Assembly (NCBI GenBank): GCA_964469325.1
Contig: CAYXZN010000001.1
Location: 1-47,353 of the forward strand
Direction of reading: 5' to 3'
Origin: an uncultured Steroidobacteraceae bacterium
Lineage (GTDB): Bacteria > Chloroflexota > Limnocylindria > QHBO01
Length of the DNA: 47,353 nucleotides
The translations under genes and the position numbers were made by a program. Positions 8,646-35,830 of the stretch are shown here, in pieces (within the stretch, counting starts at the first letter, position 1; the number at the start of each line of letters is the position of its first letter). The notes below the pieces were generated by a model that was not told where the DNA came from, ran no database searches, and saw only the letters and a program-made list of their open reading frames with translations.

Positions 8646-10031
8646 CTACCACTCACACTCGTTGGGTGGCTCCCCCGGCGTGCAGTCGGCCGTGACGGCG
8701 ATCTCCTCGATGATCTCCAGCGCGCGCTCGGCGTCGAGGAGCACCGGGTCGCCGGTCGTTCCGTCCGCGTTGAACGGCGTGTAGGCCTGGACCACGTGGT
8801 TGACACCGCCATCGGTGTAGGTGCCCGAGCCGGTGATGCCCTCGTAGTCGATGTCCTGGCCCTCGCGAATCAGAGCCAGGCACTCGGCGTAGGTGTGGCA
8901 CACCTCGCCCGGCGCTTCGCCGACCTCGTGCATGGCCGGCGCCCAGTCACTCGCGTTGTACGAGCCTCCGTACTCGACGGCCAGCGCCGTCTGGACCAGG
9001 AGGTCGTAGGTCGAGAAGTGGTACAGGCCCGTCGCGTCCTCGTCGTTGTACGGCTCCGTGCTCGACCACAGCTCTGAGAAGAACTCCCAGGCGGGAGTCT
9101 GATCGTTGTACGAGAAGGCCGCGAACCCGATCCCCTCTTGTGAGGCGATGGGCTCCGTGCCGAGGGTGTTGATGAACTCTTCCTGGACCCAGCCGGTCTC
9201 GCCGATCCACTCCAGCGACAGGCCGGCCTCGGCCGCCTGCTTGATCAGGGTTGCCGACTCCACCGAGCCGGCCTGGACGATGACGGCGTCCGGCCCGAGG
9301 TCCGCGATCCGCTGCGCCTCGGCCCGGTAGGAGGGCTGCTCGGCTGGGACGTCGATCCGCGCGAGCACCTCGATGCCGACCGCCTCGGCCGCATTCTCGG
9401 CCGCGGCCGCCGCCAGCTGGAAGCCCTCCACCTGGGTTGCGAAGATCACGACCGACTCGGCGCCGATCGTCTCGGCGTACAGGATGCCGGACATTCCCAG
9501 CGCCTCATCGAGGCCCTGGGCGCGGAAGATCGGCTCCGCGGCCTTGCCGCCCAGGTTGCCGGGGATCGCCCCACCGTGGACCGACGGCCCGAGCGGGGAG
9601 TCGTTCTCCTGCCACCACTCGCTCATGAAGTCGCGGTACGTCCGGTACCCGTGAGCGATGCTCACCACGATCTCGGCCCCGTGCTGCTCCAAGCAGGTAC
9701 GAGCGGCCTGGGCCTCGCCCACCGTCCCGAGGTCCTCGTGGAAGAGCTCCCATGGTCGGCCGAGCGGTGGGTCGAGGTTGATCACCTCCTCGATTGGGAA
9801 GATCACGTCCTCGGTGAGGGATTGGCCGAACGCTCCGAACTCGCCTGTGTAGTACGCGAGCTCGCAGACCGCTACCGGGTCACCGGTCGGGTCACCGTTG
9901 CCGTCGCCCGGGCTTCCCGTGGCGTCCGGCGACGTCCCCGGCCCCGTGGGCGTCCCGCACGCGGTGGCGACCAGGGCCAGCACCGCCATCACGACCAGGA
10001 TGCGCCCCCGCTTCATATCCCCGATGCTCAC
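8646..10031 (-). CDS. ABC transporter substrate-binding lipoprotein, Leu/Ile/Val-binding-protein (type I PBP) family; ligand unknown
   Basis: 461 aa. The lipoprotein signal MKRGRILVVMAVLALVATACG is followed by a low-complexity linker. The body (ELAYYTGEFGAFG.., VVIFATQVEGFQ.., DAVIVQAGSVESATLIKQA) resembles Peripla_BP_6 proteins. It is the last gene of the LivHMGF-type operon. Confidence 0.75.
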   Translation of the reverse strand: MSIGDMKRGRILVVMAVLALVATACGTPTGPGTSPDATGSPGDGNGDPTGDPVAVCELAYYTGEFGAFGQSLTEDVIFPIEEVINLDPPLGRPWELFHEDLGTVGEAQAARTCLEQHGAEIVVSIAHGYRTYRDFMSEWWQENDSPLGPSVHGGAIPGNLGGKAAEPIFRAQGLDEALGMSGILYAETIGAESVVIFATQVEGFQLAAAAAENAAEAVGIEVLARIDVPAEQPSYRAEAQRIADLGPDAVIVQAGSVESATLIKQAAEAGLSLEWIGETGWVQEEFINTLGTEPIASQEGIGFAAFSYNDQTPAWEFFSELWSSTEPYNDEDATGLYHFSTYDLLVQTALAVEYGGSYNASDWAPAMHEVGEAPGEVCHTYAECLALIREGQDIDYEGITGSGTYTDGGVNHVVQAYTPFNADGTTGDPVLLDAERALEIIEEIAVTADCTPGEPPNECEW

Positions 10032-10083
10032 TGTGCTACCTCCTCCGGATGTGGTGCCTGTAGGTACGTCGCCAGGTACGTCG

Positions 10084-10800
10084 TCAAATCCTGTATCCCT
10101 CCTTGAGCTGCGTGGTCGTCACGTCGGCTGCGTTGAGGACGGCGAAAGCCTCGCCAAGGCTGAGGACCATCACCCGGTCGGCGACCTGGAGCGCCTTGGT
10201 GGCGTTCTGCTCGGCGAGGACGATCGCGACCCTTCTGGTCGCGCGGATCTCCCTGATCTTGTCGAAGAACGTCTCGACGTAGAGCGGCGACAGCCCGGCC
10301 GTGGGCTCGTCGAGCAGCAGCACCTTCGGGTCCTGCATCAGCGCTCGGGCGCAAGCCAGCATGCGCGACTCACCGCCGCTGAGCGTCCCCGCTCGTTGTG
10401 CCTGCCGGTCGCCCAGATCGGGGAACAGCTCGAAGACCTCGGCAACCCGCTCGTCACGAGGACGGTCACCGATCATCGCCCCGACGCTCAGGTTCTCGAG
10501 CACGGTGAGGTCGGGGAAGGTCCCCTTCTCCTGGGGCACGTAACCGATTCCCCGGCTGGCAGTCTCGTAGGGAGGCAGGCTGGACACGTCCTCGCCCTGA
10601 AACCGGATCCTGCCGGCGATGAGTGGGATGAGACGGGCCAGAGTCCCCAGCAGGGTCGTCTTTCCCGCACCGTTCGCCCCGAGGACGGCGAAGATCTCGT
10701 CGCTGACGGTGAAGTCCAGGCCCTTCAGGACGGTGACCCCGTCGTAGCCGCTCTGCATGCTCTCGACCTCGAGCGTGATCGAGCCCGCCGCCTCAGACAT
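10084..10800 (-). CDS. Branched-chain-amino-acid-type ABC transporter ATP-binding protein (LivF-like)
   Basis: 238 aa. Walker A GANGAGKTTLL, signature LSGGESRMLACARAL, Walker B LLLDEPTAGLSP. Confidence 0.88.
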   Translation of the reverse strand: MSEAAGSITLEVESMQSGYDGVTVLKGLDFTVSDEIFAVLGANGAGKTTLLGTLARLIPLIAGRIRFQGEDVSSLPPYETASRGIGYVPQEKGTFPDLTVLENLSVGAMIGDRPRDERVAEVFELFPDLGDRQAQRAGTLSGGESRMLACARALMQDPKVLLLDEPTAGLSPLYVETFFDKIREIRATRRVAIVLAEQNATKALQVADRVMVLSLGEAFAVLNAADVTTTQLKEGYRI

Positions 10801-11587
10801 GGCCCTCTCCCAGGTACTTCTCGATGACCGTCTTGTTCTCGCGAATCGTCTGGGGATCGCCCTTCAGGATCACCCTGCCCTCGGCCATGAAGGAGACTTC
10901 GTCGCAGAGGTTCCAGATCACGTCGAGGTCGTGCTCCACGATGACCACCGAGGTGCCGGCCGCGGCCAGGTCTCTGATCACCCTCATCACCTTCTCGGTC
11001 AGCTGGTCGGGGAGGCCGGCGGTCGGCTCGTCGAGCAGGAGAAAGGTGGGCTTGAGGAGCAGGCAGCGCACGATGTCCAGCAGCTTCTTCTCCCCAGCCG
11101 AGTTCGCGAACGCGGTTGGGTCAGAGAACCCGAAGTAGTCGAGCCGGTCACGGATCTCCGCCTCGTATCGCTCGAAGATGGTCCCCTCGCTGAAGATCCG
11201 ATACGGCTGCTCGTAGCGCGGCTCGGTGCCGGCGAGCAACAGCGAATCCCAGATCGTCAGCCTGTCGAAGTCGGTGATCACCTGGTTGCTCTTCACGACG
11301 CCGTGGTGCGCCATCCGATCGGTGGACAGCCTCGACAGGACGATCTCGCTCTGCCCAGCGGGGAGCAGCGATATCCTCCCGCGGTCCAGGGGAATCGAGT
11401 GCATGATCATCCGCATCAACGTCGTCTTGCCCGCGCCATTCGGGCCGATGAGGCCCTCGATCGGCCGGTCGCCGAGGACGAGCTCGTCGATGTCCACCAC
11501 GACCCGGCCCGAGAAGCTCTTGACCGCTTCCTCGATCCGGATCTGCGGTCCGGTCACCGCCACCGCCTCGACGACGTCAACGGCCAT
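10793..11587 (-). CDS. Branched-chain-amino-acid-type ABC transporter ATP-binding protein (LivG-like)
   Basis: 264 aa. Walker A GPNGAGKTTLMRMI, signature-like SAGEKKLLDIVRCL, Walker B LLLDEPTAGL. It overlaps the downstream ATPase gene by 8 nt. Confidence 0.85.
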   Translation of the reverse strand: MAVDVVEAVAVTGPQIRIEEAVKSFSGRVVVDIDELVLGDRPIEGLIGPNGAGKTTLMRMIMHSIPLDRGRISLLPAGQSEIVLSRLSTDRMAHHGVVKSNQVITDFDRLTIWDSLLLAGTEPRYEQPYRIFSEGTIFERYEAEIRDRLDYFGFSDPTAFANSAGEKKLLDIVRCLLLKPTFLLLDEPTAGLPDQLTEKVMRVIRDLAAAGTSVVIVEHDLDVIWNLCDEVSFMAEGRVILKGDPQTIRENKTVIEKYLGEGHV

Positions 11588-12527
11588 GCATGCTCCTCAT
11601 CAGTCGGTCGCGTCGCATCTCGCCGAGCACACCCAGCGGGCGGAACAGCAGGACGACGATCAGCGCCGCCCCGAAGACCGCCTCGCGGAGCACGGGGATC
11701 GCCTGCGTGTACCACTCGCGGGGGAGCGGGAGGTAGGACTGGACGACGATGTCGAAGAGGCCCACGGTGAGGAAGACGCCGATCACCGCTCCCCAGACGC
11801 GCGCTGTGCCGCCGAGCACCAGCCCCACGATCGCGGCCAGGGTGATGTCGACCCCGAGGTTGGAGATCTCCAGGAAGCGAACCATCACCCCGAACATCGC
11901 GCCGAGCAGCCCCATCGCCGCAGAGGTGACCGCGAAGAGCCAGAGCTTGGTCCGGTAGGTCGGCTTCCCCAGGCTCCGCGCCAGGGGCTCGTTGGCGCCC
12001 ACGGCGATCAGGAGGCGACCGTACGGGGAGCGGTGCACCCTCCAGACGAAGAACAGGATGGCGCCGACGATGGCGGACAAGATGACGAGCCAGGCGAACT
12101 CGTTGGCCTTGACCGTCCCGAGGTGGTACGGGAAGCCGAGCCCGCCCATCCCGAGCGCGCCGCCGGTGAGGTCCTGCTGGGTTGTGGCCAGGATGAGAAC
12201 GGCGGCGGCAAAGCCGAGCGTCCCGACCAGCATGCCGTCAATGTCCAGGTCGGCGATCAGCCACCCGATCAGCAGACCGGACAGGCCGGCCACGGCCGTC
12301 GCGATGGTGGCGCAGACCAGGAACTGCCAGGGGTCGCCGAACGGCCAGTCCACCTGCACGTACGTGACGCCAAAGGCGTACATCCCGATGCCCCAGAAGC
12401 CCACGACGCCGAAGTTCGCGATCCGCGCAAGCCCGAGCTGCAAGTGAAGCAGCAACGCCAGGCCGATCACCATCACCACCTCGAAGAGGCCGGAGATGAG
12501 GAAGGCGTCGATCCAGTCGAGGGTCAT
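11577..12527 (-). CDS. Branched-chain-amino-acid-type ABC transporter permease (LivM-like)
   Basis: 316 aa and polytopic. The sequence GLARIANFGVVGFWGIGMYA.. is typical of BPD_transp_2 LivM-type permeases. Confidence 0.82.
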   Translation of the reverse strand: MTLDWIDAFLISGLFEVVMVIGLALLLHLQLGLARIANFGVVGFWGIGMYAFGVTYVQVDWPFGDPWQFLVCATIATAVAGLSGLLIGWLIADLDIDGMLVGTLGFAAAVLILATTQQDLTGGALGMGGLGFPYHLGTVKANEFAWLVILSAIVGAILFFVWRVHRSPYGRLLIAVGANEPLARSLGKPTYRTKLWLFAVTSAAMGLLGAMFGVMVRFLEISNLGVDITLAAIVGLVLGGTARVWGAVIGVFLTVGLFDIVVQSYLPLPREWYTQAIPVLREAVFGAALIVVLLFRPLGVLGEMRRDRLMRSMHGR

Positions 12528-12531
12528 GCCA

Positions 12532-13404
12532 TTACACCTTCGCCGCCTCGGTGAGCCGCCGACCGCGCACCTTCAGGATGACGAGAAAGGCGACGATGAG
12601 CGCGAGCTGGGCGTACAGCACCTGGCCGAACTGGAGCGACATGGCTGCCAGCGCCACGCCGGTCGCCACCCCAACCGCGATCACGCCCCGGAGTCCCCAG
12701 ATTCCGCCCACCAGGACCACCAGCAAGATGACGAGGAACTGTCGCCAACCGAGCAGGGGCGCTACGGACGATCCGACGCCGTAGAACGCGCCCGCCAGCC
12801 CGCCGGCCACCCCCGCAATGAACCAGATCAGCACGGTGACGGTCAGCGGCCGAATGCCGCTCGCCTGTGCCAGCGCCTCGTCGCTGGCGAGCGCCCTGAT
12901 CTGCAGGCCGTAGCTCGAGCGCTGGATGAACCAGTACAGCAGCAGCGCGAGCACGGCGACGCTGGCGATGGCGAGGAGTCGGAACGAGGTCACCCCGACG
13001 CCGAGCACCATCAGCGTTTCCGGCGGCGGGACGTCAAAGAATCGGACCGGGTAGCCGAACACGAACTGCAGGCCATGCCGCAGGAAGATCGACAGGCCGA
13101 AGGAGATGATGATCATCTCCAGCAGGCCCACGTTGCGCAGCTTGGCCGGCCGGAAGATGACGAGGTAGGTGGCGACGCTCACCAGACCTGCCAGCAGCCC
13201 GGCCGGGACCAGAGAGGTATAGAAGTCGACGCCGAAGGTGGTGTTGGTCCACATGCCGAAGTAGGCGCCGAGCGTGATCGTTTCCGAGTACGCCACGTTG
13301 ATGAGGCCGGTGAGCCGGTAGAGCAGGGCGAAGCCGATCGCGGCAAGGACCAGGGGTGCATGCTCGGTGAGGCCGATCAGGAGGGCCCGGGTGACGAAAT
13401 CCAT
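12532..13404 (-). CDS. Branched-chain-amino-acid-type ABC transporter permease (LivH-like)
   Basis: 290 aa and polytopic. The sequence YRLTGLINVAYSETITLGAYF.. is LivH-like. It is the first gene of the transporter operon. Confidence 0.82.
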   Translation of the reverse strand: MDFVTRALLIGLTEHAPLVLAAIGFALLYRLTGLINVAYSETITLGAYFGMWTNTTFGVDFYTSLVPAGLLAGLVSVATYLVIFRPAKLRNVGLLEMIIISFGLSIFLRHGLQFVFGYPVRFFDVPPPETLMVLGVGVTSFRLLAIASVAVLALLLYWFIQRSSYGLQIRALASDEALAQASGIRPLTVTVLIWFIAGVAGGLAGAFYGVGSSVAPLLGWRQFLVILLVVLVGGIWGLRGVIAVGVATGVALAAMSLQFGQVLYAQLALIVAFLVILKVRGRRLTEAAKV

Positions 13405-13622
13405 CAGCCATCGCCCCTCGCCATCAGGTCGTCAACCCGCATCCGGGTGCGACACGGCCCGGAGGCGGTCACCTCGCGGAGTTGGCTCACGTACGAGCGT
13501 TCCGTACTCGTTGGTGCGGAGTCCGGCTCTCGGTCCGTCCGGGAGCTGTCGGCGTCGGCACAGGGCAACTCTCCACGCTGCGGGCTGTCGGCCCGACCGG
13601 TTCGGGACGTGGGCTCGGCTCT

Positions 13623-13672
13623 TCGATAATCGATTGTCGATGACGATAGGCTGTCGGGGAGGGCCCAGTCAA
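13623..13672 (-). promoter_or_regulatory. Leftward promoter (TTGACT-N18-TATCGT) fused to a 26-nt TCGAT-heptad operator (box 1, copy A)
   Basis: Box TCGATAATCGATTGTCGATGACGATA at 13623..13648 is identical 26/26 to 26959..26984. Read on the minus strand, the -35 TTGACT is at 13672..13667 and the -10 TATCGT at 13648..13643 with an 18-nt spacer, so the box starts at the -10 and covers the expected start site. It faces the LivH-like operon. Confidence 0.55.
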
Positions 13673-13689: not shown

Positions 13690-13733
13690 TTGACTGGCAC
13701 CCCGGCCGTCCCGTATCCTCGATAATCGATGAT
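13690..13733 (+). promoter_or_regulatory. Rightward promoter (TTGACT-N18-TATCCT) fused to a 15-nt operator TCGATAATCGATGAT (box 2, copy A)
   Basis: The -35 TTGACT is at 13690..13695 and the -10 TATCCT at 13714..13719. The final T of the -10 is the first base of TCGATAATCGATGAT (13719..13733), which is identical 15/15 to 27073..27087. The SDR start codon lies 38 nt downstream. Confidence 0.55.
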
Positions 13734-13770
13734 AACCGACGCGTCGCAGCGGTCGTAGCACCATGACGCA

Positions 13771-14562
13771 GTGGCAGTGAGCCGGCTGGACGCGTTTCGC
13801 CTTGACGGGCGGGCGGCCATCGTTCCCGGCGGCGGGGGAGCCATCGGTTCCGCCATAGCCGCGGCGCTGGCATCGGTCGGCGCCGACGTGGCGGTGGTCG
13901 GCCGGTCCAGGGAGCGCCTCGAAGCGGCAGCTGCGGGGATCGAGCAGGCCGGCGGACGCAGCCTCGTCCTCCCCGGTGACGTGACGGTGGACGAAGACGC
14001 CAGGCGGGTCGTCGCCGAGACCGTCGATCGTTTCGGCCGGCTGGACATCATCGTGAACGCGGTGGGCGGCGGCGCCGGCAAGGTGCTCTACCCCGCCGAG
14101 GAGTACCCGCGCGACGCGTGGGACTGGATCATGGAGCTGAACGTGCGCTCCACCCTGCTGCCAACGCAGGCCGCAGTCGGGGCCATGGTGGCTGCCGGGC
14201 GGGGAGGGCGGGTGCTGAACATCAGCTCGGTGCGCGCCTCGCTGGGTATCAACGCAGGCTACTCGGCCTACGTCGCGGCGAAGGGCGCCATCAGCGCCCT
14301 GACCCGGCAGTGGGCGACGGAGTGGGCGAAGCACGGGATCACCGTGAACGCCATATCGCCCACGTTCGTCGACACGCCGCAGGTCGCCATGCTGCTCGGC
14401 GACCCGGAGTTCAGGGCCAATATCGTGAACCGCATCCCGCTCGGCCGCGTGGGCGGAACCGACGACCTCACCGGCGCCGCCATCTTCTTCTGCTCGGACG
14501 CCGCCTCGTTCGTGACGGGCCAGATCCTGGGCATCGACGGCGGGCTGACCGCCACGCAGTAG
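13771..14562 (+). CDS. Short-chain dehydrogenase/reductase (SDR) family oxidoreductase
   Basis: 263 aa. Cofactor loop GGGGAIGSAIAAAL, NAVG motif, catalytic S..YSAYVAAK (YxxxK), and C-terminal FVTGQILGIDGG. The start is GTG at 13771, with GTG at 13777 as an alternative. Confidence 0.88.
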   Translation: MAVSRLDAFRLDGRAAIVPGGGGAIGSAIAAALASVGADVAVVGRSRERLEAAAAGIEQAGGRSLVLPGDVTVDEDARRVVAETVDRFGRLDIIVNAVGGGAGKVLYPAEEYPRDAWDWIMELNVRSTLLPTQAAVGAMVAAGRGGRVLNISSVRASLGINAGYSAYVAAKGAISALTRQWATEWAKHGITVNAISPTFVDTPQVAMLLGDPEFRANIVNRIPLGRVGGTDDLTGAAIFFCSDAASFVTGQILGIDGGLTATQ

Positions 14563-14579
14563 CAACGAGGAGCGTCCTC

Positions 14580-15446
14580 ATGCAGAGGGTGACCGACAAC
14601 GTCTGCACCGATACCACCCTGCGGGGCTGCAACCCGAGCTACGTCGTCACGCGTGACGGCGTGGTGGTCATCGACACGCCGCAGCTGCCGACCAGGGCGG
14701 TTGCCATGCGCAAGGAGGCGGAGGCGCAGGGGCCGATTCGCTTCCTGATCAACACCGAGCACCACGTCGACCACATCTTCGGCAACTACTTCTTCAAGGG
14801 GGCCGGCACGGTGGTCAACCACCGGGGGCTGTACGAGAACTTCATGGTGCCCACTTCCGACCTCGATCCCTACGAGTACGCGAAGGAGGCGATCCCGACC
14901 GACGATCCAGAAGGTGCGTCCATCTTTCCCGAGCGGGACGGGTACTACGCCGATCCCAACAAGGGGAAGATCGTCTTCACCGGTGACCTGATGCTCCGCG
15001 TCGGCGAGCACACCTTCCACCTGCTGCACACGCCCGGGCACACGCCAGGACAGCTGGCCGTCCACGTACCCGAGGAGCGGGTGGCCTTCACCGGGGACAC
15101 GATCTTCAACGAGTGCCAGACGTGGCTGATGACCTCGAACGTCGACGAGTGGCTGGTGGCGCTCGACCGGATCAAGGCGCTGGACGTCGACCACGTCGTC
15201 CCCGGTCATGGCCCGGTGACCACGCTGGACTACCTCGACACCCAGCGGGCCGTGCTCCTCGAATGGAAGGCGGCCGTGGCGGCCGCGATCGCGAAGGGCT
15301 GGAGCCGTGAGGAGACGATCGAGCGCGTGAGCTTCGCCGATCGCTACCCGGTCGACGTGGGGCAGGGATACATGATGGACCACATCCAGACGCTCAACGC
15401 CGGCTCGCTGTACGACAAGCTCACCGCCGTCCCCGCGAAGGGCTGA
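14580..15446 (+). CDS. Metallo-beta-lactamase-fold hydrolase
   Basis: The real start is ATG 14580 (MQRVTDNV..) inside track ORF 14118..15446, preceded by the RBS GAGGAG. The HxHxDH motif appears as NTEHHVDHIFG; later metal ligands are HTPGHTPG and VVPGHGP. Confidence 0.85.
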   Translation: MQRVTDNVCTDTTLRGCNPSYVVTRDGVVVIDTPQLPTRAVAMRKEAEAQGPIRFLINTEHHVDHIFGNYFFKGAGTVVNHRGLYENFMVPTSDLDPYEYAKEAIPTDDPEGASIFPERDGYYADPNKGKIVFTGDLMLRVGEHTFHLLHTPGHTPGQLAVHVPEERVAFTGDTIFNECQTWLMTSNVDEWLVALDRIKALDVDHVVPGHGPVTTLDYLDTQRAVLLEWKAAVAAAIAKGWSREETIERVSFADRYPVDVGQGYMMDHIQTLNAGSLYDKLTAVPAKG

Positions 15447-15457
15447 GGGTGGCCGGA

Positions 15458-18686: not shown

Positions 18687-18714
18687 CGTCGGGTTCTCCT
18701 CGGGCTCGGTGGGC

Positions 18715-27072: not shown

Positions 27073-27087
27073 TCGATAATCGATGAT
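27073..27087 (+). promoter_or_regulatory. Operator TCGATAATCGATGAT (box 2, copy B) upstream of the transaldolase operon
   Basis: It is identical 15/15 to 13719..13733 and lies 46 nt upstream of the transaldolase ATG. A TTGCCA -35-like hexamer sits at 27058..27063, but the -10 assignment is ambiguous (ATGATT or GATTAT). Confidence 0.5.
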
Positions 27088-27132
27088 TATGGAGATCGCC
27101 AGCAGCCGAAGCGACCGGAGGAGGTACCGGCC

Positions 27133-28227: not shown

Positions 28228-28250
28228 GCGAGGCCCACGAGGAGGCAGGC

Positions 28251-28619
28251 ATGATCAAGCGCGTGGCTCGAGCCGAGGCGCAGCACCTCCCGCTGGCCGG
28301 CCGCGACTGGTACACCTACATCTCGCCGGATAACAGCCCGGCGCGGAACGTCTCGGTCGGCGTGTCGGTCTTTCCACCCGGATCGAAGCCGGAGGGACAC
28401 GTTCACCCGGCCGAGGAGGAGACGATCTACGTCACCTCCGGTCGTGGCCGGTTGGTGACGCCCGAGGCGACCGCCGGGCTGGAGCCGGGCGTATCGGTCT
28501 TCATCCCGGCCGGGACCTTCCATGCCACCGAGTCCGACGGGCCCGAGCCGCTCGAGCTGGTCTGCCTCTTCTCGCCGCCGGTGGTGCCCGGCTCGTACGA
28601 GACGAAGGGTCGAGAATGA
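28251..28619 (+). CDS. Cupin-domain protein (possible sugar isomerase or small-molecule-binding protein)
   Basis: 122 aa. Cupin motifs are GSKPEGHVHPAEEETIYVTSG and PGVSVFIPAGTFHATE. It is ATGA-coupled to the transketolase N-terminal subunit gene. Confidence 0.75.
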   Translation: MIKRVARAEAQHLPLAGRDWYTYISPDNSPARNVSVGVSVFPPGSKPEGHVHPAEEETIYVTSGRGRLVTPEATAGLEPGVSVFIPAGTFHATESDGPEPLELVCLFSPPVVPGSYETKGRE

Positions 28620-29494: not shown

Positions 29495-30438
29495 CCCTGC
29501 CCATGGGGCGCCCGATGCGCGAGGTGTTCGGGGAAACCGTGGCGGACCTCGCCAACGACGACCCGCGCATCCTGATGCTGGACGGCGACCTGGGCAGCTC
29601 CACCAGGGCCGATATCTTCGAGCACGCGCACCGGGACCGCTTCCTCCAGATGGGGATCGCCGAGCAGAACATGATCGGCGTGGCGGCGGGGCTGGCGAGC
29701 ATGGGCTTCATGCCCTTCATCAGCACCTTCGTCTCGTTCGCGGTGGTGCGACCGCTGGACCAGGTGCGCGTCCTCGTCGCCCAGACCGGCCTGAACGTGA
29801 AGCTGACCGCCGGCTACGCCGGGCTCTTCACCGGCATGGCGGGCAAGACCCACCACATCGTCGACGACATCTCGATCATGCGCGCGATGCCCGGCATGAT
29901 CACCGTCTCGCCCGCCGACGACGTGGAGGCGGACCGGGTGCTGCGCTGGGCGGCCAGCTACGAGGGGCCGGTCTACGTGCGGATCGTGCGCGACGCCACC
30001 CAGCGCCTGTTCGGCGAGGATCACTCGTTCCAGCCCGGCCGGGCGGTGGTGGTCCGGGAGGGGAGCGACGTGACGCTGATCGCGACCGGCGCCCAGACGC
30101 CGCGGGTCGTTGACGCAGCGGACCTGCTCGCCGAGCAGGGTATCGGCGCCCACGTCGTCCACCTGCCGACCCTCAAGCCCCTGGACACCCAAGGGATCGT
30201 GGAGGCCGCCGAGCGCACCGGCCGGGTGGTCACCGTCGAGGAGCACAGCGTCATCGGCGGGCTGGGCGGGGCGGTGGCCGAGACGCTGGGCGAGCAGCGG
30301 CCAACGCCGATGCGGCGAATAGGGCTCAACGACATCTACACCGAGTCGGCGCCGAACGACGTGCTGCTCGACCTGTACGGCCTCTCCGCCCGAGCGGTCG
30401 CCGAGCAGGTGCAGGCGATGCGCTGGGAGAGCAGCTGA
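29491..30438 (+). CDS. Transketolase, C-terminal (pyrimidine-binding plus C-domain) subunit
   Basis: 315 aa. The GTG start overlaps the upstream stop as GTGA. Motifs include FLQMGIAEQNMIGVAAGLA, YVRIVR and VVTVEEHSVIGGLG. Confidence 0.9.
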   Translation: MTLPMGRPMREVFGETVADLANDDPRILMLDGDLGSSTRADIFEHAHRDRFLQMGIAEQNMIGVAAGLASMGFMPFISTFVSFAVVRPLDQVRVLVAQTGLNVKLTAGYAGLFTGMAGKTHHIVDDISIMRAMPGMITVSPADDVEADRVLRWAASYEGPVYVRIVRDATQRLFGEDHSFQPGRAVVVREGSDVTLIATGAQTPRVVDAADLLAEQGIGAHVVHLPTLKPLDTQGIVEAAERTGRVVTVEEHSVIGGLGGAVAETLGEQRPTPMRRIGLNDIYTESAPNDVLLDLYGLSARAVAEQVQAMRWESS

Positions 30439-30458: not shown

Positions 30459-31184
30459 TCAGCCCGCGCCGTCCCCGCCGCCCGTCTCCCCGTGAGCCAC
30501 ATCCGGCGCGACGGGCGCGTCGGGCAACGCCTCCTCCCAGCCGGCGCCGATCTTCGAGCTCGCGCGATCGAAGTGCAGGCGCAGCGCGTGCACCACCGCC
30601 TGGGGATCACCCTGCCGGAGGGCGTCGAGGATGGGCCAGTGGAGCGCCGCGGTCCACTGCACGTCCACGCCGGGGATTCGGGCGGTGATGTACGTGCGCA
30701 GGAAAGGCTCCAGCGACTGCCAGACGCGGCGCAGGGTTGCGTTCCCGCTGAGCTCGACGATGCGACCGTGGAAGGTGGCGTCCGCAAGCGCAAGCGCATG
30801 CGCATCGCCGCTCTCGGCGGCCCGACGCAGCGCCTCCCCGTGAGCCAGCAGGTCGTCCAGGTCCGCCTGGGTCATGCGCGACACGGCCAGGCGCGCGGCC
30901 AGCGACTCAAGCTCGGCTCGGACGGTGATCGCCTCCAGCAGCTCGGCGGTGCTGGGACGGCGGACCCGGGCGCCCCGGAACGGCAGGATCTCCACCACAC
31001 CGGTGGCCTCCAGTCCGCGCAACGCCTCTCGCACCGGCGCCTGGCTGATCCCCAGCTCCCGCGCGACCGTCGTCTCCACGATCCGCGCATGGGGCGGATA
31101 GCGGCCCGACAGGATGTCGCTCAGCAGTCGATCCTTGACCTCGTCGGCCAGGACGCTTCGCGACAGGGCCTCCTGCTCAGCCAT
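30459..31184 (-). CDS. GntR-family transcriptional regulator, FadR subfamily, paralogue 2
   Basis: The real start is ATG 31184 (MAEQEALSRSVLADEVKDRLL..), with the RBS GGGAGG a few nt upstream; the track ORF extends to 31421. The wHTH RIVETTVARELGISQAPVREALRGLEATGVVE is nearly identical to paralogue 1, and the FCD C-domain includes FHGRIVELSGNATLRRVW. Confidence 0.88.
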   Translation of the reverse strand: MAEQEALSRSVLADEVKDRLLSDILSGRYPPHARIVETTVARELGISQAPVREALRGLEATGVVEILPFRGARVRRPSTAELLEAITVRAELESLAARLAVSRMTQADLDDLLAHGEALRRAAESGDAHALALADATFHGRIVELSGNATLRRVWQSLEPFLRTYITARIPGVDVQWTAALHWPILDALRQGDPQAVVHALRLHFDRASSKIGAGWEEALPDAPVAPDVAHGETGGGDGAG

Positions 31185-31345
31185 CCACCCTCCCATTCGA
31201 TCCCCGGTGATGGAGCGGTGGCTCCGGGACCGCGGCGAATTGTAGCGTGGCGACCGCCGCCGGCCGGTCACCGATGAGGCAGGCGACGAGTGACGAGGGC
31301 ACTGACCCGCGGCCGGGCGACCATTGGCGTCGGCTCCCGACCACC

Positions 31346-32230
31346 ATGACCGGCGAGCCGATCGCGAGGGTGCCGGACGACTGGCGGGTCTGGGCCTTCT
31401 CCGATCCGCACGGCGTGGCAACGGGCCTGGAGGCGGCTCTCCGGGAGTCCGGCCTGGTGGACGACGATCTCCACTGGGCGGCGCCCCCCCGCACCGCGCT
31501 GATCGGCTGCGGCGACTACCTGGACCGTGGCTCCAACAGCCGGCGAGTGCTGGCGCTGCTGCGCCGGCTCCAGGCCGAGGCGGATTCCGCGGGTGGCTGC
31601 ATCATCCTGGCGCGCGGCAACCACGAGGAGATGGTGCTGCACCTGCGAGCGGGACGGGAGGAGTGGCTGCCGGTGTGGCTCGCTTACGGCGGGCACGCGA
31701 CGCTGGAGTCCTTCGGCTGCGCGCCGGACGACCCCGGCCGCGACGCCGCCGCGTTGGCCGTCGTCGGGGTCCGTGAGCCGGGGCTCTTCGAATGGCTGGC
31801 GGGGATGCCGCAGGCCGCCCGCTGGCGAGACGTCCTGTTCGTTCACGGTGGCCTGCCGGCGGGCGCAGCGCCGGGCGACCTCGGGTCCAGCACCGACCGC
31901 CACCTCTGGGTGCGTGCCGAGTTCTTCGAGACACCGTGGTCCACCGGGGACTTCGACCGCTTCGTGGCGGCCGGGGTGGAGCGGGTCGTCTTCGGGCACA
32001 CGCCGGGCCCGGCGGGAATCCGCGTGCTCCAGGGCGGGCGCCTGCTGGCGATCGACTCCAACGCGTGCGGCAACCCGCGCATGCCGGCCGACGCCCGTCG
32101 GCTGGTGACCCTCGTCGAGGTCGGTGATGGCATTTTCGACGATGCCCGGACCGTCGTGGTGCCGACCGAGCACGCCCCCGATCTCGCGTTGTACCCGGAC
32201 GCCACCGACCCTATGCTCGATCATCGATGA
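31346..32230 (+). CDS. PPP-family metallophosphoesterase (PrpE/ApaH-like Ser/Thr or diadenosine-polyphosphate phosphatase)
   Basis: All signature blocks are present: SDPHG, GDYLDRG, GNHE, VHGG and FGHTP. The start is uncertain: ATG 31346 (MTGEPIARV), ATG 31274, or GTG 31247 as in the track. The stop codon lies inside operator copy C. Confidence 0.78.
   Translation: MTGEPIARVPDDWRVWAFSDPHGVATGLEAALRESGLVDDDLHWAAPPRTALIGCGDYLDRGSNSRRVLALLRRLQAEADSAGGCIILARGNHEEMVLHLRAGREEWLPVWLAYGGHATLESFGCAPDDPGRDAAALAVVGVREPGLFEWLAGMPQAARWRDVLFVHGGLPAGAAPGDLGSSTDRHLWVRAEFFETPWSTGDFDRFVAAGVERVVFGHTPGPAGIRVLQGGRLLAIDSNACGNPRMPADARRLVTLVEVGDGIFDDARTVVVPTEHAPDLALYPDATDPMLDHR
32189..32230 (+). promoter_or_regulatory. 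Rightward promoter (TTGTAC-N17-TATGCT) fused to operator TCGATCATCGATGA (box 2-like, copy C)
   Basis: The -35 TTGTAC is at 32189..32194 and the -10 TATGCT at 32212..32217. As in copy A, the last T of the -10 is the first base of the box (32217..32230 by itself; over 15 nt it matches TCGATAATCGATGAT at 13/15). It lies 22 nt upstream of the E1 start. Confidence 0.45.
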
Positions 32231-32251
32231 CCGGACTGGAGCGCTGACGAC

Positions 32252-34567
32252 ATGGCCACCCCCGTCAGGGATACGACCTACCTGAGCGACGCGCGTCCCG
32301 ACTTCGCACCGTTCGAGGAGCCCTGCGGGACGATCGTGGGCTTCCGCTACGCCGGCACGCTGGCCGGCGAGCTCGAGAGCGGCCGGCTGACCGCCGCGGA
32401 CGCCTTCGCCATGCTGGACGACATGCTCGCCATCCGGGAGCTGGAGGAGATGATCGTTCGGCTTCGCTCCGGCGGCTACGAACCGCTGGCGGGATTCGAC
32501 TACCGCGGGCCGACCCACGTTTCGATCGGCCAGGAGGCGACGGCCATCGGTGCCGCGACCGCGCTGCGCCCGGACGATGCGATCACCAGCTCGCACCGTG
32601 GCCACGGGGACGCCGTCGCCAAGGGGTTCGCCGCGATCCGCCGCATGGACGCCGACCGGCTCCGTGCCCGGCTGCCGAGCGCTGGCAGCGGAACGCGAGA
32701 CGAGCTGCTCGCCGCCGCCCTCGAGGAGCACCTCTTCCGGGTCGTGGCAGAGCTGTTCGGCAAGGACGAGGGCTACTGTCGCGGGCGCGGCGGCGGGATG
32801 CACATCGGCGACTTTTCGACCGGGCACCTCGGCGCGAACGCCATCGTGGGGGGCAGCGTCCCGATCGCGACCGGCGCCGCCATGGCCTTCCGCTACCAGC
32901 GCACCGACCGAGTGGTGTGCTGCATGGCCGGCGACGGCGCCTACGCCAACGGCGTGGTGCTGGAGTCACTGAACTGGGCGACGCAGCACCAGTGGACGAA
33001 CCACCTGGCGGGCGACCACCGCTACGGGCTGCCGATCGTGTACCTCATCCAGAACAACCACTACGGCATGACCCATCGGACCGATGAGGAGGTGATGGGG
33101 GTCCGTCACCTCGCGCGCCGCGCAGCGGGGTTCGATGACGACAACATGCACGCCGAGGTGGTCAACGGCATGGACGTGCTGGCCGTGCGCGACGCCATGG
33201 AGCGTGCCGCCGCTCGGTGCCGCTCCGGCGAGGGACCGGTGCTGATCGAGGCCAGCACCTACCGCTACTACGGCCACTCCCTGTCCGACCCGAGGAACGA
33301 GTACCGGACCCGCGACGAGGAGGCGGCCTGGCGCGCCATCGATCCGGTGGAGCAGCTGAAGCGTCAGATGCTGGAGGCGGGAATCGCGGACGGGGACCGG
33401 CTGGCGGCAATCTCCGGCGCCGCCCGCGAGCGCAACGCGCGCGCGGCGCAGCGGGCCGCGGCAGCCACCGATCCCGACCCGGCCGAGCTGCTGCGGTTCC
33501 TCTACACCGACACCCGCGCGGACGAGGTACCGCCCCAGGCACACCAGGTGGTGACGTACGGCGACCCGCCGCTCGCCAAGCGTGACGACCAGGGCAACGT
33601 CACCTACCGCGACGCCATCCGAGAGGCGCTGGTGGAGGAGATGCTGCGCGACGGCCGGGTGGTCGTCTACGGGGAGGACATCGCGGACTACGGCGGCGCG
33701 TTCAAGCTGACCAAGGGGCTGCTGGAGGCGTTCGGCCGCCACCGAGTCTTCAACACGCCCATCTCCGAGGCGTGCATCTGCGGGACCGCGGTGGGAGCCG
33801 CCATGGTCGGCACGCGCCCGGTGGTGGAGCTGATGTACATGGACTTCGCGCTCATGGCCTCCGACCAGATCGCCAACCAGGCCGGCAAGTGGCACTACAT
33901 GAGCGGGGCGCAGGTCGAGGTGCCGCTGGTCATCCGCGCGTCGGTCGGTGCGGGCAAGGGCTACGGCGGCCAGCACTCGCAGTCGCTGGAGAGCCTGTTC
34001 ACCCACATCCCGGGCCTGTACGTCCTCTATCCCGCCACCCCGGCGGACGCCAAGGGTCTGCTGAAGTCGGCGATCCGCGACAACAACCCGGTGCTGTTCG
34101 TCGAGAGCCAGGGGCTCTACCCCACCAAGGGCCCGCTGCCCGAGGGGGACGACCGGTTGGTGGAGATCGGCACCGCGCGCGTCGCGCGCGAAGGGGCGGA
34201 CACGACGCTGGTGGCGTGGGGGCCGGCGGTCATCGACGCGCTCGCCGCCGCCGATCGCCTCGCTGCCGAGCACGGCATCTCGGCGGAGGTGATCGACCTG
34301 CGCAGCCTGGTGCCGCTGGACATGGAGACGGTACTGGCGTCGGTGCGGAAGACGGGCCGCTGCCTGGTCGCCAGCCAGGCGGTCCTGATCGGCTCGTTCG
34401 TCAACGAGATCGTCGCTCGGATCCAGTCCGAGGCGTTCGACGACCTCGACGCGCCGGTCGGGCGCATCGGCGCCGCCAACGGCATATCGCCCCAGGCCGA
34501 AGGGCTGGAGAAGGCCTTCCTGCCGCAGCCGGACGACATCGTCCGCGCCGTCCTGGCCGCCGGGTAG
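32252..34567 (+). CDS. TPP-dependent 2-oxoacid/acetoin-type dehydrogenase E1 component, fused alpha-beta
   Basis: 771 aa. The alpha part shows YRGPTHVSIGQEA, GGGMHIGD, GGSVPIATGAA and MAGDGAYANGVVLESLNWA. The beta part shows VTYRDAIREAL, VYGEDIADYGGAFKLTKGL, FNTPISEA and GGQHSQSLES. The two halves are in one continuous frame. Confidence 0.88.
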   Translation: MATPVRDTTYLSDARPDFAPFEEPCGTIVGFRYAGTLAGELESGRLTAADAFAMLDDMLAIRELEEMIVRLRSGGYEPLAGFDYRGPTHVSIGQEATAIGAATALRPDDAITSSHRGHGDAVAKGFAAIRRMDADRLRARLPSAGSGTRDELLAAALEEHLFRVVAELFGKDEGYCRGRGGGMHIGDFSTGHLGANAIVGGSVPIATGAAMAFRYQRTDRVVCCMAGDGAYANGVVLESLNWATQHQWTNHLAGDHRYGLPIVYLIQNNHYGMTHRTDEEVMGVRHLARRAAGFDDDNMHAEVVNGMDVLAVRDAMERAAARCRSGEGPVLIEASTYRYYGHSLSDPRNEYRTRDEEAAWRAIDPVEQLKRQMLEAGIADGDRLAAISGAARERNARAAQRAAAATDPDPAELLRFLYTDTRADEVPPQAHQVVTYGDPPLAKRDDQGNVTYRDAIREALVEEMLRDGRVVVYGEDIADYGGAFKLTKGLLEAFGRHRVFNTPISEACICGTAVGAAMVGTRPVVELMYMDFALMASDQIANQAGKWHYMSGAQVEVPLVIRASVGAGKGYGGQHSQSLESLFTHIPGLYVLYPATPADAKGLLKSAIRDNNPVLFVESQGLYPTKGPLPEGDDRLVEIGTARVAREGADTTLVAWGPAVIDALAAADRLAAEHGISAEVIDLRSLVPLDMETVLASVRKTGRCLVASQAVLIGSFVNEIVARIQSEAFDDLDAPVGRIGAANGISPQAEGLEKAFLPQPDDIVRAVLAAG

Positions 34568-34576
34568 GACCCGCCC

Positions 34577-35830
34577 ATGGCCCACCCCATCCTGATGCCG
34601 CGTCCTGGACAGATGACGGAGGAGTGCACGCTCCTCGCCTGGCGCAAGGACGAAGGGGAGCCGGTCCGCAAGGGCGATGTCCTGTTCGAGATCGAGACCG
34701 ACAAGGCCACCATGGAGGTCGAGGCCTTCGTCGAGGGCGTCCTCCTGCAGCAGCTGGTGGAGGCGGGGCAGACCGTTCCGGTCAACTCGGTGTGCGCGTA
34801 CGTCGGCGAGCCGGGCGAGCGCCTCCCGGAGACCGACGCTGCTGGCGCCGTGCCCGACGATCGGAGCGCGCCCGAGGTGACACAGCCTCCGCCGGGTGGC
34901 GCTGCCGCTGATGGCGCGGCCCCCCGGGGCCGGGACCGGGTGCGCACCAGCCCGCGTGCCCGGCGCCTGGCGGTGGAGGCGGGCATCGACCTCGCGTCCG
35001 TGGCGGGCACCGGCCCGGCGGGGCGCATCGTGGAGCGCGACGTTCGGGCGGCGGTCGAGCGGCTCGCGGCCGGCCAGGCGGGGACCGCCGCCGCGCCGCC
35101 GGTCGTACGGGAGCCCCCGGCGGCACCGCCGGTCGAGGCGGAGGACGAGTCGCGCCAGCCGCTGTCGCGAATGCGGCGCGTGATCGCCGATCGGATGTCG
35201 CTGAGCACCGGCACCGCACCCCAGTTCACGGTCACGATATCGGTCGACGTCACCCGTCTGATGGCTCTGCGGCAGCGCCTGAAGGAGGCTGGGCGAGGCC
35301 TCAGCGTGACCGACTTCCTGGTGCTGGCCGCCGCCCAGAGCCTGGTCGAGTTCCCGCTGGTCAACTCGCGGACCGACGGCGCCGACGTGTGGCTCCGGCG
35401 CCGGGTGCATGTCGGTCTCGCCGTGTCGGTTCCCGACGGCCTGGTGGTGGTTGTCCTGCGCGACGCCGACCACCTGACCCTCGACGAGATCCACGAGCGC
35501 TCGACGGCGTTGATCCAGGCCGCTCGCGCCGGCACCCTGAAGCCCGACGACATGTCCGGCAGCACCTTCTCCATCTCCAACCTGGGCATGTACGGCGTGG
35601 AGCAGTTCACGGCCATCATCAATCCGGGCGAATCGGCCATCCTGGCGGTGGGCAGCGCGGTCCCGCGGCCGGTGGTCATCGGCGATGGGATCGGGGTTCG
35701 GACCAGCATGCGGGTCACCCTCACCGCCGACCACCGGCTGATCGACGGCGAGCTGGCAGCCCGTTTCCTGGACGACCTGCGGCGGCGGCTGGAGGCCCCC
35801 GACGCGCTCGCCTCGCGATCGCTGACCTAG
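34577..35830 (+). CDS. Dihydrolipoamide acyltransferase E2 component (lipoyl, E3/E1-binding and catalytic domains)
   Basis: 417 aa. The lipoyl-Lys context is LFEIETDKATMEVEA. The subunit-binding domain is SPRARRLAVEAGIDLASVAGTGPAGRIVERDV. The catalytic motif is LTADHRLIDG. Confidence 0.9.
   Translation: MAHPILMPRPGQMTEECTLLAWRKDEGEPVRKGDVLFEIETDKATMEVEAFVEGVLLQQLVEAGQTVPVNSVCAYVGEPGERLPETDAAGAVPDDRSAPEVTQPPPGGAAADGAAPRGRDRVRTSPRARRLAVEAGIDLASVAGTGPAGRIVERDVRAAVERLAAGQAGTAAAPPVVREPPAAPPVEAEDESRQPLSRMRRVIADRMSLSTGTAPQFTVTISVDVTRLMALRQRLKEAGRGLSVTDFLVLAAAQSLVEFPLVNSRTDGADVWLRRRVHVGLAVSVPDGLVVVVLRDADHLTLDEIHERSTALIQAARAGTLKPDDMSGSTFSISNLGMYGVEQFTAIINPGESAILAVGSAVPRPVVIGDGIGVRTSMRVTLTADHRLIDGELAARFLDDLRRRLEAPDALASRSLT

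Follow-up and report, generated by a model that had tools for sequence, protein, structure and literature searches.

A conserved palindromic motif marks a candidate GntR-controlled catabolic regulon in the Limnocylindria (Chloroflexota)

Introduction

Is a short AT-rich motif that recurs in a GC-rich genome of the Limnocylindria the operator of a single regulator and, if so, what pathway does it control? The motif lies between positions 8646 and 35830 of a 47,353-nt stretch of DNA (hereafter the window; positions 1–47,353 of contig CAYXZN010000001.1, GenBank assembly GCA_964469325.1) from an uncultured bacterium placed by GTDB in the class Limnocylindria of the Chloroflexota. Soils and freshwaters harbour this class (formerly Ellin6529) in abundance, most of its members are uncultured, and to our knowledge almost nothing is known of their regulation and diet. 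The window encodes a LivHMGF-type ABC importer and several sets of enzyme genes, including an eight-gene operon that is headed by the gene for a swivel-domain protein (Pps596) and contains a GntR-family regulator gene (GntR1); a paralogous regulator (GntR2) is encoded nearby. The original prediction, made from the sequence alone, was that copies of the motif join five operons into one catabolic regulon. The computational analysis presented here leads us to read the five boxes as operators of a locally encoded FadR/FCD-type GntR repressor, with a probability of roughly 0.78.

Operator sites in the window

The palindrome TCGATNATCGA (TCGAT-N-ATCGA) occurs in perfect form at exactly five positions in the window (13623, 13719, 26959, 27073 and 32217), against a base composition of 65–75% G+C, which bears out the claim of five AT-rich sites with a common core. 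With up to one mismatch allowed, the core TCGATMATCGAT had eight matches at five loci compared with 0.30 expected, and none of 100 shuffled sequences reached eight. Variants of TCGAT-N-ATCGA with one or two mismatches were of the GC-rich type expected of coding DNA, and those with two mismatches were scattered there. A weight-matrix scan had been suggested as a check on the original prediction; using a matrix derived from the sites of orthologous loci, only the five loci (seven registers) scored highly, at 23.6–32.9 bits, the next match in the window having 10.3 bits. The flanks of the window (20 kb outside 8646–35830) held no match of 10 bits or more.

Operators A (13623–13648) and C (26959–26984) are boxes of 26 nt with the same letters, TCGATAATCGATTGTCGATGACGATA, and each contains three TCGA units spaced by 7 bp; within the composite box A, two overlapping palindrome registers 7 bp apart score 26.1 and 23.6 bits. 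Operators B (13714–13734) and D (27068–27088) have the core TCGATAATCGA, at 13719–13729 and 27073–27083, respectively, and the corresponding 15-nt boxes (13719–13733 and 27073–27087) both read TCGATAATCGATGAT. B is the best site in the window, with 32.9 bits. Operator E (32212–32232) has the core TCGATCATCGA at 32217–32227 and is second best at 27.3 bits; its copy of the box at 32217–32231, TCGATCATCGATGAC, agrees with the 15-nt boxes at 13 of 15 positions. None of the five is assigned to a strand. The two identical pairs and the 13/15 copy are all seen by direct reading, as first described. The term 'TCGAT-heptad' operator has fared less well: the shared sites stand, but they are more aptly viewed as two ATCGAT units forming a palindrome, to which a third half-site may be added at a distance of 7 bp.

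Promoter context and the direction of control

A consensus scan for sigma70-like −35 and −10 hexamers identified four promoters, two in each divergent intergenic region. The importer operon is preceded on the minus strand by a promoter at 13643–13672 (−35 TTGACT at 13667–13672, an 18-nt spacer and −10 TATCGT at 13643–13648), and the divergent operon for an SDR, a metallo-beta-lactamase-fold hydrolase (MBL) and a Zn-ADH by a plus-strand promoter at 13690–13719 (TTGACT-18-TATCCT). Similarly, the eight-gene operon has a minus-strand promoter at 26979–27007 (TTGACT-17-TATCGT), while the operon for a transaldolase-family protein (TAL), a cupin and a split transketolase (TK) has one on the plus strand at 27059–27087 (TTGCCA-17-GATGAT). 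Boxes A–D each abut or overlap the −10 hexamer of their own promoter, and the spacers of 18, 18, 17 and 17 nt match the claim that four sites sit at the edge of a −10 hexamer with a 17–18-nt spacer. Boxes A and C take in the hexamer and extend into the transcribed region, the last six nucleotides of A being the −10 hexamer of the Liv promoter and C containing that of the eight-gene operon. At B, the first T of the core is the final T of the −10 hexamer TATCCT, and in the TAL promoter D falls within the spacer and −10 region. Transcription starts are predicted for the five units at ~13636 (−), ~13726 (+), ~26972 (−), ~27094 (+) and ~32224 (+).

An alignment of the Liv and Pps596 promoters shows identity confined to CCTTGACT and the 26-nt −10-plus-box segment, with different spacers and flanks. 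Because the two promoters share only these elements, selection on functional elements appears to be at work rather than recent duplication.

Repression is the favoured direction of control, because all boxes lie within the footprint of RNA polymerase while their position relative to the −10 hexamer varies. A role in activation, or as promoter elements for an alternative sigma factor, is very unlikely. There is precedent for activation by some FadR-family proteins, as FadR activates transcription at fabA, but the boxes lie downstream of the −10 hexamer and abut it at A, B, C and E, and fall inside the spacer and −10 hexamer at D. Such variable placement is typical of operators and not of promoter elements, positions that are all within the polymerase footprint amount to classical repressor geometry, and good −35 and −10 hexamers are already in place.

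Conservation of the sites in related genomes

Conservation was assessed in 80 loci with 10-kb flanks (1.33 Mb in total; designated by L numbers) from species-representative genomes of Limnocylindria and relatives, retrieved with an orphan P-loop protein of the eight-gene operon (unk301) as anchor; the species-representative collection contains 386 candidate stretches that encode a relative of this protein. A core gene order is kept in the 80 loci, namely Pps596-GntR-unk301-FAD-FeS-Mo-(cyclase)-(ZnADH)-PPDK708 with TAL divergent from Pps596, while the arrangement of the SDR–MBL, Liv, TK and E1/E2 modules around it varies. Perfect operator cores numbered 116 and were found in 63 of the 80 loci, compared with ~12 in fourth-order Markov simulations, and 84 of the 116 were located no more than 450 nt upstream of a cluster gene.

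The sites are specific to operon heads. When sites of at least 15 bits within 420 nt upstream of a gene were counted, they were found before TAL in 36 of 39 loci (median distance 55 nt), before LivH in all seven, before the cupin gene in five of eight, before Pps596 in 39 of 68 and before the SDR gene in 12 of 38, where SDR genes without a site of their own usually follow TAL in the same operon. In contrast, no site preceded any of the more than 300 internal genes for unk301, the FAD and FeS subunits, the cyclase, PPDK708 and MBL, and the large molybdenum subunit (MoL, also internal) had one in 1 of 72 loci, the only site among ~400 internal operon genes in all. The position at operon heads is conserved in at least 60 species-level genomes, and the expectation that both sites and gene neighbourhood would recur in orthologous loci is borne out. 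The extended consensus is a 19-bp palindrome, aTnATCGATnATCGATnAt. An orthologous box, (TCGA)CAATCGATTATCGA, is found upstream of Pps596 in many loci, and in orthologues the third unit of boxes A and C varies (TCGA, TCGG, TCAA or AGAA), being only partly conserved. One further core-like sequence, TCGATGATCGA, recurs in conserved coding segments of cyclase and aldehyde dehydrogenase (ALDH) genes (e.g., L005 15388 and L007 3940); these are coding coincidences that a scan using the core alone would miscall as sites.

A related cluster in Thermomicrobium roseum

A tblastn search of plasmids with Pps596 identified a homologue (48.5% identity over 95% of the query) on the 918-kb megaplasmid of Thermomicrobium roseum DSM 5159, within a cluster included here as L083 (NC_011961.1 44300–75952). 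The cluster starts with genes for an SDR and a VOC-family protein, followed divergently by LivH, LivM, the substrate-binding protein, LivG and LivF. Next come genes for a Tm-1-like (UPF0261) protein, a PEP-hydrolase-like protein, a GntR regulator, a cyclase-family protein, a stand-alone ATP-grasp protein and a hypothetical protein, and the cluster ends with the FAD subunit, FAH-family and ABM-family proteins, the Pps596 homologue, an XDH-family Mo subunit and a 2Fe-2S protein. Compared with their counterparts in the window, the Mo subunit is 38% identical, the 2Fe-2S protein 52%, the FAD subunit 35% and the GntR regulator (WP_012642902.1; old tag trd_A0077) 41–43%; the regulator keeps the recognition helix SQ(A/T)PVREALRDLE.

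Two operator sites were found in this cluster (L083 2550 and 9626). One, GATAATCGATAATCGTAGATC (25 bits), shares bases with the −10 hexamer of the Liv-type operon's promoter, a perfect TTGACA-17-TATGAT; the other, GAGAATCGATTCTCGATATTC (18.6 bits), lies just downstream of TTGACG-17-TAAGCT and before the GntR gene. Elsewhere in a contiguous 276 kb of the 918-kb megaplasmid, the sole match of 12 bits or more was one of 15.4 bits inside a 3-hydroxyacyl-CoA dehydrogenase gene. As this single further match is in coding sequence, the motif is no dispersed repeat in T. roseum. The original prediction had allowed for a repeat of this kind, and none came to light either in the window flanks (20 kb) or in these 276 kb. 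The idea that the boxes are copies of a REP- or MITE-like repeat without a regulatory role is effectively refuted: they are indeed AT-rich, repeated and in part identical over 26 nt, but the identity is limited to the −35 and −10-plus-box elements, the flanks are free of copies, the T. roseum scan gave just one weak coding match outside the cluster, and the operon-head position is kept across at least 60 genomes.

Published RNA-seq data for T. roseum in exponential and stationary phase show that trd_A0073–A0079 rise together 1.8–2.6-fold in stationary phase, while the Mo subunit and ABM genes are unchanged (PMC6776052, Table S1). The co-varying group comprises the genes for the FAD subunit, ATP-grasp protein, cyclase and GntR regulator together with a hypothetical gene. 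These data are weak evidence, compatible with two predicted units; because the co-variation is only modest, they neither prove nor refute co-regulation.

Candidate regulators

GntR1 (24139–24834, minus strand) consists of a GntR winged helix (PF00392, 2e-14) and an all-helical FCD domain (PF07729, 1e-24). GntR2 (30459–31184, minus strand) is a paralogue of the same FCD type, with 57% identity over 227 aa and a near-identical winged helix-turn-helix (wHTH) region, RIVETxVARELGxSQAPVREALRxLEA. The solved structures nearest to the GntR proteins are the FCD regulators 7xp0, 3c7j and McbR (4p9f). The original description of two FadR-type paralogues with nearly identical recognition helices therefore holds, with the strand of GntR2 corrected to minus; a plus-strand open reading frame (ORF) over the same positions, 30459–31184, is spurious. 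The intergenic region between GntR2 and the neighbouring phosphoesterase gene (31185–31345) has no TCGAT box and contains a conserved ATTGTAGC, equivalent to TACAAT on the minus strand, which is the likely −10 hexamer of the GntR2 gene's own promoter. As this promoter lacks an operator and carries the conserved TACAAT, GntR2 appears to be made constitutively.

The GntR gene and the motif occur together, with at least one intergenic site in 61 of the 62 GntR-bearing loci. Sites of the FadR subfamily are A/T-rich palindromes with TKGT and ACMA boxes 3 nt apart, and extra half-sites 7–12 nt away have been reported as common for GntR sites (PMC4494728). The operator core described here fits the 11-bp frame of TKGT-N3-ACMA, with T at position 1 and, on the complementary strand, at position 11, G at position 3 and C at position 9. 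The motif is without the GT/AC dinucleotides of the canonical GntR consensus, so its assignment to a GntR protein rests on co-occurrence and geometry. Exceptions to the canonical consensus have been published, for example NanR and BioR. Given the co-occurrence and a core in frame with the FadR-subfamily consensus, GntR1 and GntR2 are by far the most likely binders of the boxes.

Alternatively, the boxes could be real operators that are bound by another protein, such as a global carbon or stress regulator encoded elsewhere, with the GntR proteins using other sites that went unnoticed. We consider this unlikely. The missing GT/AC would be explained, as would two loci that bear sites and have no detected GntR homologue. 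On the other hand, 61 of 62 GntR-containing loci have a site, one of the T. roseum sites directly precedes the GntR gene, and the T.G.....C.A frame of FadR-type sites is retained in the core. Furthermore, the regulated promoters showed no second conserved palindrome, and the cluster has no other conserved regulator gene.

The fifth site

Operator E, upstream of the genes for a fused E1 and E2, differs in context from the other four. It shares sequence with the end of the phosphoesterase gene (the final five codons and the stop codon) and precedes the E1 start codon by ~25 nt; the promoter scan found nothing above threshold there. By eye, a weak TTGTAC (32189–32194) is followed after a 17-nt spacer by TATGCT (32212–32217), and the junction TATGCT|CGAT has the same TATNCT|CGAT pattern as B. 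The 18-nt segment reads ATGCTCGATCATCGATGA in the window, ATGCTCGATTATCGATGA in L002 and ATGCTCGACTATCGATGA in L081, with one core mismatch; L002 and L081 are the two close relatives that keep the phosphoesterase-to-E1 arrangement. Upstream of this segment, both the DNA and the protein tail diverge among relatives. On this basis, site E is probably a functional operator, weaker than the other four and conserved only in the closest relatives. The earlier claim of a fifth operon under the shared operator is therefore upheld as regards core and score, and weakened by the coding overlap and the absence of an above-threshold promoter.

A less likely alternative is that only four units are controlled, that the box at 32217 is a coding coincidence and that E1/E2 are read from the phosphoesterase promoter. 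The overlap with the last phosphoesterase codons, which encode a conserved peptide (MLD[HY]R*), would be accounted for, as would the lack of a promoter match above threshold. The central base of this box is C, as in chance coding matches, and TCGATGATCGA recurs in the cyclase and ALDH coding regions of other loci; a rough count puts the chance expectation at ~0.1 perfect cores for the window. A coincidence would leave unexplained a score (27.3 bits) second only to that of B, a −10/box junction exactly as at B with a 17-nt spacer to TTGTAC, and the retention of the 18 nt in L002 and L081 where the rest of the C-terminal tail varies. In addition, E1/E2 adjoin cluster genes in other genomes.

Proposed mechanism

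Taken as operators of a local GntR repressor, the boxes suggest the following mechanism, in which we infer the binding protein, repression and the effector from sequence comparison. A GntR dimer would bind the palindrome aTnATCGATnATCGATnAt with its core TCGAT-N-ATCGA, and an extra half-site 7 bp off in A and C, at sigma70-type promoters. Since each operator adjoins or overlaps a −10 hexamer or transcription start, a bound dimer should block RNA polymerase. Release of the repressor would follow when a small-molecule effector, perhaps the compound taken up or an intermediate of the pathway, binds to the C-terminal FCD domain, so that the LivHMGF-type ABC importer and four enzyme operons would be switched on together. 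GntR1 is predicted to be negatively autoregulated, as its gene sits inside the eight-gene operon headed by box C, while GntR2 probably shares these sites and may respond to another effector.

Several observations count against a GntR repressor acting at all five sites. The operator has GA/TC in place of the canonical GT/AC, and no site precedes the GntR2 or phosphoesterase gene. Site density far from cluster genes is a confounded measure, because most of the 'far' sites stand in front of alternative Liv-type transporter genes or frameshifted Pps genes, both missed by the tblastn labels. In T. roseum, the joint change in expression is modest and part of the cluster is flat. Finally, the 18 nt of site E encode the conserved C-terminal MLD[HY]R-stop, the site loses one core base in L081, and it is absent in more distant genomes, where E1 just follows another cluster gene.

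Gene content of the candidate regulon

Gene calls were based on codon-position GC, and domains were assigned by Pfam and NCBIfam. The importer operon (8646–13404, minus strand) encodes LivH, LivM, LivG, LivF and a Peripla_BP_6 substrate-binding protein, which had no match among PDB sequences. The SDR–MBL–Zn-ADH operon (13771–16516, plus strand) encodes an SDR nearest to gluconate 5-dehydrogenase and a Zn-ADH nearest to IolM (scyllo-inosose 3-dehydrogenase)/Tdh, all NCBIfam matches being below curated cut-offs (219 bits versus a cut-off of 450 for the best match of the Zn-ADH, IolM). The eight-gene operon (16560–26638, minus strand) encodes, in transcription order, Pps596, GntR1, unk301, the FAD, 2Fe-2S and Mo subunits of a molybdenum enzyme, a cyclase-family hydrolase and PPDK708. 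Divergent from it, the TAL operon (27133–30438, plus strand) encodes a divergent transaldolase-family protein, a small cupin and the N and C subunits of a split transketolase. Beyond GntR2 are a calcineurin-like metallophosphoesterase gene (31346–32230, plus strand), which has no operator upstream and holds operator E at its 3′ end, and the genes for a fused E1 (alpha-beta, 771 aa) and a lipoyl-E2 of a PDH/acetoin-dehydrogenase-type complex (32252–35830, plus strand). The flanks are functionally unrelated to the regulon: an FG-GAP repeat protein is encoded at 37874–40048, and a MoxR-type AAA ATPase, a DUF58 protein and a large VWA-domain protein, forming a Bat/MoxR-VWA-type module, at 40053–47353.

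Both minus-strand operons have unusually long untranslated leaders, of ~232 nt to the LivH ATG (13405–13636) and ~330 nt of non-coding sequence before Pps596 (26639–26972). An ORF at 26635–26943 ('unk102') was rejected as a gene, having no homologues and a GC3 (G+C at third codon positions) of 0.75 compared with ~0.9 in real genes; the operon therefore has eight genes and the ~330-nt leader, and the original count of eight is retained once this ORF is dropped. A Liv leader of ~220 nt recurs in orthologous loci. When aligned across loci, however, the Liv and Pps596 leaders were poorly conserved beyond the operator, so no riboswitch-like element could be put forward, and an Rfam scan of the whole window gave no match. 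A short conserved stretch, TTCCGACGGAGGTGGCGAKCACGGAGAAC, is present in the Pps596 leader of more distant loci (L042, L068, L079, L011 and L014) and not in the window.

The enzymes of the eight-gene operon include two that suggest a dikinase. Pps596 has a PEP-utilizers domain at residues 505–575 with the swivel motif TDAGGTVSH and aligns to residues 681–866 of rifampin phosphotransferase, and an orthologue matches Rph_4th, an RPH-type substrate-binding region. PPDK708 (16560–18686, minus strand; 708 aa) combines an ATP-grasp domain with its own swivel (GGLASH), scores above cut-off to a truncated 'pyruvate, phosphate dikinase' (PPDK) model (NF004531) and, where PPDK would have the PEP/pyruvate TIM barrel, carries a 230-aa C-terminal domain without a Pfam match. 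The regulatory threonine of PPDK is alanine in PPDK708 (GGLASH), and Pps596 has a threonine one position off; given these two departures, the idea that unk301 is a PDRP-like regulator of the dikinase is unsupported.

The P-loop protein unk301 itself (23237–24142, minus strand; 301 aa, Walker A GESNHGKS) is an orphan, with no Pfam match even at E ≤ 5, only insignificant matches among PDB sequences (best E 1.1) and no homologue in the plasmid collection. It has 2822 homologues; the 120 best listed are 76–99% identical, and the only source names are Limnocylindria or Chloroflexota metagenome-assembled genomes. At 50% identity the family comprises only 196 clusters among 1.84 billion representatives, and it is always encoded between the GntR gene and the genes for the Mo enzyme. 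An AlphaFold2 model (pLDDT 70.6) had as best Foldseek matches ATP-dependent phosphoenolpyruvate carboxykinase (E 3e-6, TM ~0.45) and HPr kinase/phosphorylase. Candidate roles for unk301 are phosphotransfer or (de)carboxylation on a phosphorylated intermediate, or the activity of a protein kinase.

The molybdenum enzyme belongs to the XDH/CoxLMS family, with a large Mo-pterin subunit made of a hammerhead and two MoCoBD domains (PF01315, PF02738 and PF20256), a small 2x[2Fe-2S] subunit (PF00111 and PF01799) and a medium FAD subunit (PF00941 and PF03450). The best solved relative of its Mo subunit is the HcrA alpha subunit (1rm6, full length, E 3e-103), followed by quinoline oxidoreductase (2e-73). 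Its identity as a 4-hydroxybenzoyl-CoA reductase (4-HBCR) was rejected, as the FAD subunit (289 aa, a single cysteine) is without the extra [4Fe-4S] loop of the reductase; the NCBIfam score is 458 bits against an equivalog cut-off of 995. The cyclase-family hydrolase (PF04199) has a weak PDB match to isatin hydrolase and its best PDB match to the uncharacterised 5ibz; its family holds C-N and C-C ring-opening hydrolases, including a C-C ring hydrolase for dihydrophloroglucinol (PMC10470551).

A tentative pathway

Which pathway these enzymes form is suggested by clues that pull in two directions, towards a phenolic or enolic substrate and towards a cyclitol- or sugar-acid-like one. On the phenolic side, the architecture of Pps596 is like that of HpeH, CreH and PpsA, and two-component dikinases of the HpeHI, CreHI and PpsAB type phosphorylate phenols (PMC12167813). 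The Mo subunit is nearest to the 4-HBCR alpha subunit by a wide margin, UPF0261 and PEP-hydrolase-like proteins are encoded in some Limnocylindria loci and in T. roseum, FAH, VOC and ABM genes are present in T. roseum, and the cyclase family includes a C-C ring hydrolase. On the cyclitol side are the nearest relatives of the Zn-ADH and SDR, the IolA-type ALDH of related clusters, and the TAL, cupin, split TK and E1/E2 genes.

The enzyme mix fits none of the known pathways checked, in agreement with the original remark that it corresponds to no nameable pathway. The Hpe/Acv acetovanillone pathway was rejected because no biotin-carboxylase or carboxyltransferase domain was found in the Pfam-scanned window ORFs or the L081 gene calls. 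The anaerobic phenol pathway (PpsABC, phenylphosphate carboxylase and 4-HBCR) was rejected as the scanned window ORFs contain no UbiD-like gene and the FAD subunit is without the Fe-S loop. For myo-inositol (Iol) catabolism there are only loose analogues and most enzymes are missing, with no IolE, IolD, IolC or IolJ domains in the scanned window ORFs. The noted absence of an FGGY, ROK or PfkB kinase also holds for the window by Pfam.

Several neighbouring genes of related clusters touch on the substrate. At L020 ~7479, a glucokinase-like gene of the ROK family and Pps596 are transcribed divergently from either side of an operator of 27 bits; no other sugar-kinase-like gene was seen beside a site. 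In many related clusters, UPF0261 (Tm-1-like) and PEP-hydrolase-like genes lie directly upstream of Pps596 or GntR (L006 5264–7347, L053 ~5140 and L083 7490–9593). UPF0261 is a domain of the aromatic kinase MarK (PMC12624787), and since this MarK-type gene adjoins Pps596 or GntR, such genomes may hold two different kinase systems in one regulon. A CoA-acylating methylmalonate/malonate-semialdehyde dehydrogenase (MMSDH/IolA-type ALDH; TIGR01722, above cut-off) is encoded after TAL or right behind the operator in L081 (4570–6105), L030 (3396–4928) and L055 (~2126), and not in the window; its insertion hints at a 3-oxopropanoate-type product.

As a tentative working model, we propose catabolism that begins with protection by phosphorylation, as in the Cre and Hpe pathways. 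Following import, the compound would undergo ATP-dependent O-phosphorylation of a phenolic or enolic hydroxyl by the putative two-component dikinase Pps596 + PPDK708. Side-chain or ring oxidation by the SDR, ADH, Mo enzyme and ALDH might follow, then hydrolysis by the cyclase and MBL together with C-C cleavage of the thiamine diphosphate (TPP) or Schiff-base type by TK, TAL and E1/E2, and finally dephosphorylation by the metallophosphoesterase. It is possible, though speculative, that this is an undescribed catabolic route widespread in the Limnocylindria (at least 386 species-level genomes with relatives of the marker), in which the dikinase phosphorylates a phenolic or enolic compound, unk301 and the 4-HBCR-like Mo enzyme act on the product, and TK, TAL and E1/E2 cut non-sugar alpha-hydroxyketone side chains or ring-fission products. 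Possible substrates include a lignin- or humic-derived phenylpropanoid, a polyphenol or a hydroxylated N-heterocycle. If the route proved correct, it would be new chemistry for these families.

The findings provide a candidate regulator–operator pair and a defined set of co-controlled genes conserved across the class, including an unannotated and highly conserved protein family. As the cultured T. roseum has the same cluster and operator, regulon, inducer and substrate become directly testable. Should the substrate be a phenolic derived from lignin or humus, the system would represent a third architecture among the recently discovered phosphorylation-initiated aromatic pathways, and a sensor–promoter pair for Chloroflexota.

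Comparison with known systems

A literature search returned nothing relevant on Limnocylindria with these enzymes, or on a GntR operator containing ATCGAT. The closest parallels in regulation are local FCD-type GntR repressors such as PdhR, LldR, DgoR and GlcC. Like the system described here, these have a wHTH and an all-helical FCD domain, use an A/T-rich palindromic operator with outer T..A and inner G..C in the 11-bp frame of TKGT-N3-ACMA, and place operators over the promoters of divergent catabolic operons, with one regulator gene inside a controlled operon. They differ in that the core here is GAT-N-ATC rather than GT-N3-AC and the hosts are Chloroflexota (Limnocylindria and Thermomicrobia), for which the literature search gave no comparable regulon. 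GntR1 and GntR2 of Corynebacterium glutamicum, a redundant paralogue pair (PMC2230225), offer a precedent for two regulators with a shared DNA-reading head. NanR-type regulators read tandem repeats, and the three TCGA units of boxes A and C similarly resemble a repeat array, at which more than one dimer might be recruited; however, the conserved part here is a two-unit palindrome, and the third unit is closer to an 'additional half-site' than to a direct-repeat operator.

Among the enzymes, Pps596 resembles rifampin phosphotransferase and HpeHI, CreHI and PpsAB, which between them phosphorylate phenol, cresol and hydroxyphenylethanone, by architecture, with an RPH-type binding region followed by a C-terminal His-swivel (GGTVSH). 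Characterised HpeHI/CreHI/PpsAB members act on phenolic substrates and share ~45% identity with one another. In HpeI and PpsB, the ATP-grasp (PPDK_N) domain forms a separate component of ~340 aa, and the stand-alone 323-aa form of T. roseum is alike, whereas in the window the ATP-grasp domain, also on a separate protein, is fused to its own swivel and a C-terminal domain (708 aa). Unlike the Hpe/Acv, Cre and Pps systems, the examined window ORFs have no biotin carboxylase, P450 or UbiD-type carboxylase in their Pfam assignments. The Mo enzyme shares the three-subunit L/M/S organisation of HcrABC (4-hydroxybenzoyl-CoA reductase) and differs from it in an FAD subunit without the extra [4Fe-4S] loop, and the window cyclase, with no close characterised homologue, belongs to the same family (PF04199) as isatin hydrolase, kynurenine formamidase and dihydrophloroglucinol cyclohydrolase. 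Set beside these systems, the regulatory device is an ordinary one, a local FadR-type repressor with a palindromic operator over its promoters, while the motif, the regulon and the host lineage as a regulated system appear undescribed, and the controlled pathway is possibly novel, conserved across a large uncultured class and inclusive of an orphan enzyme family.

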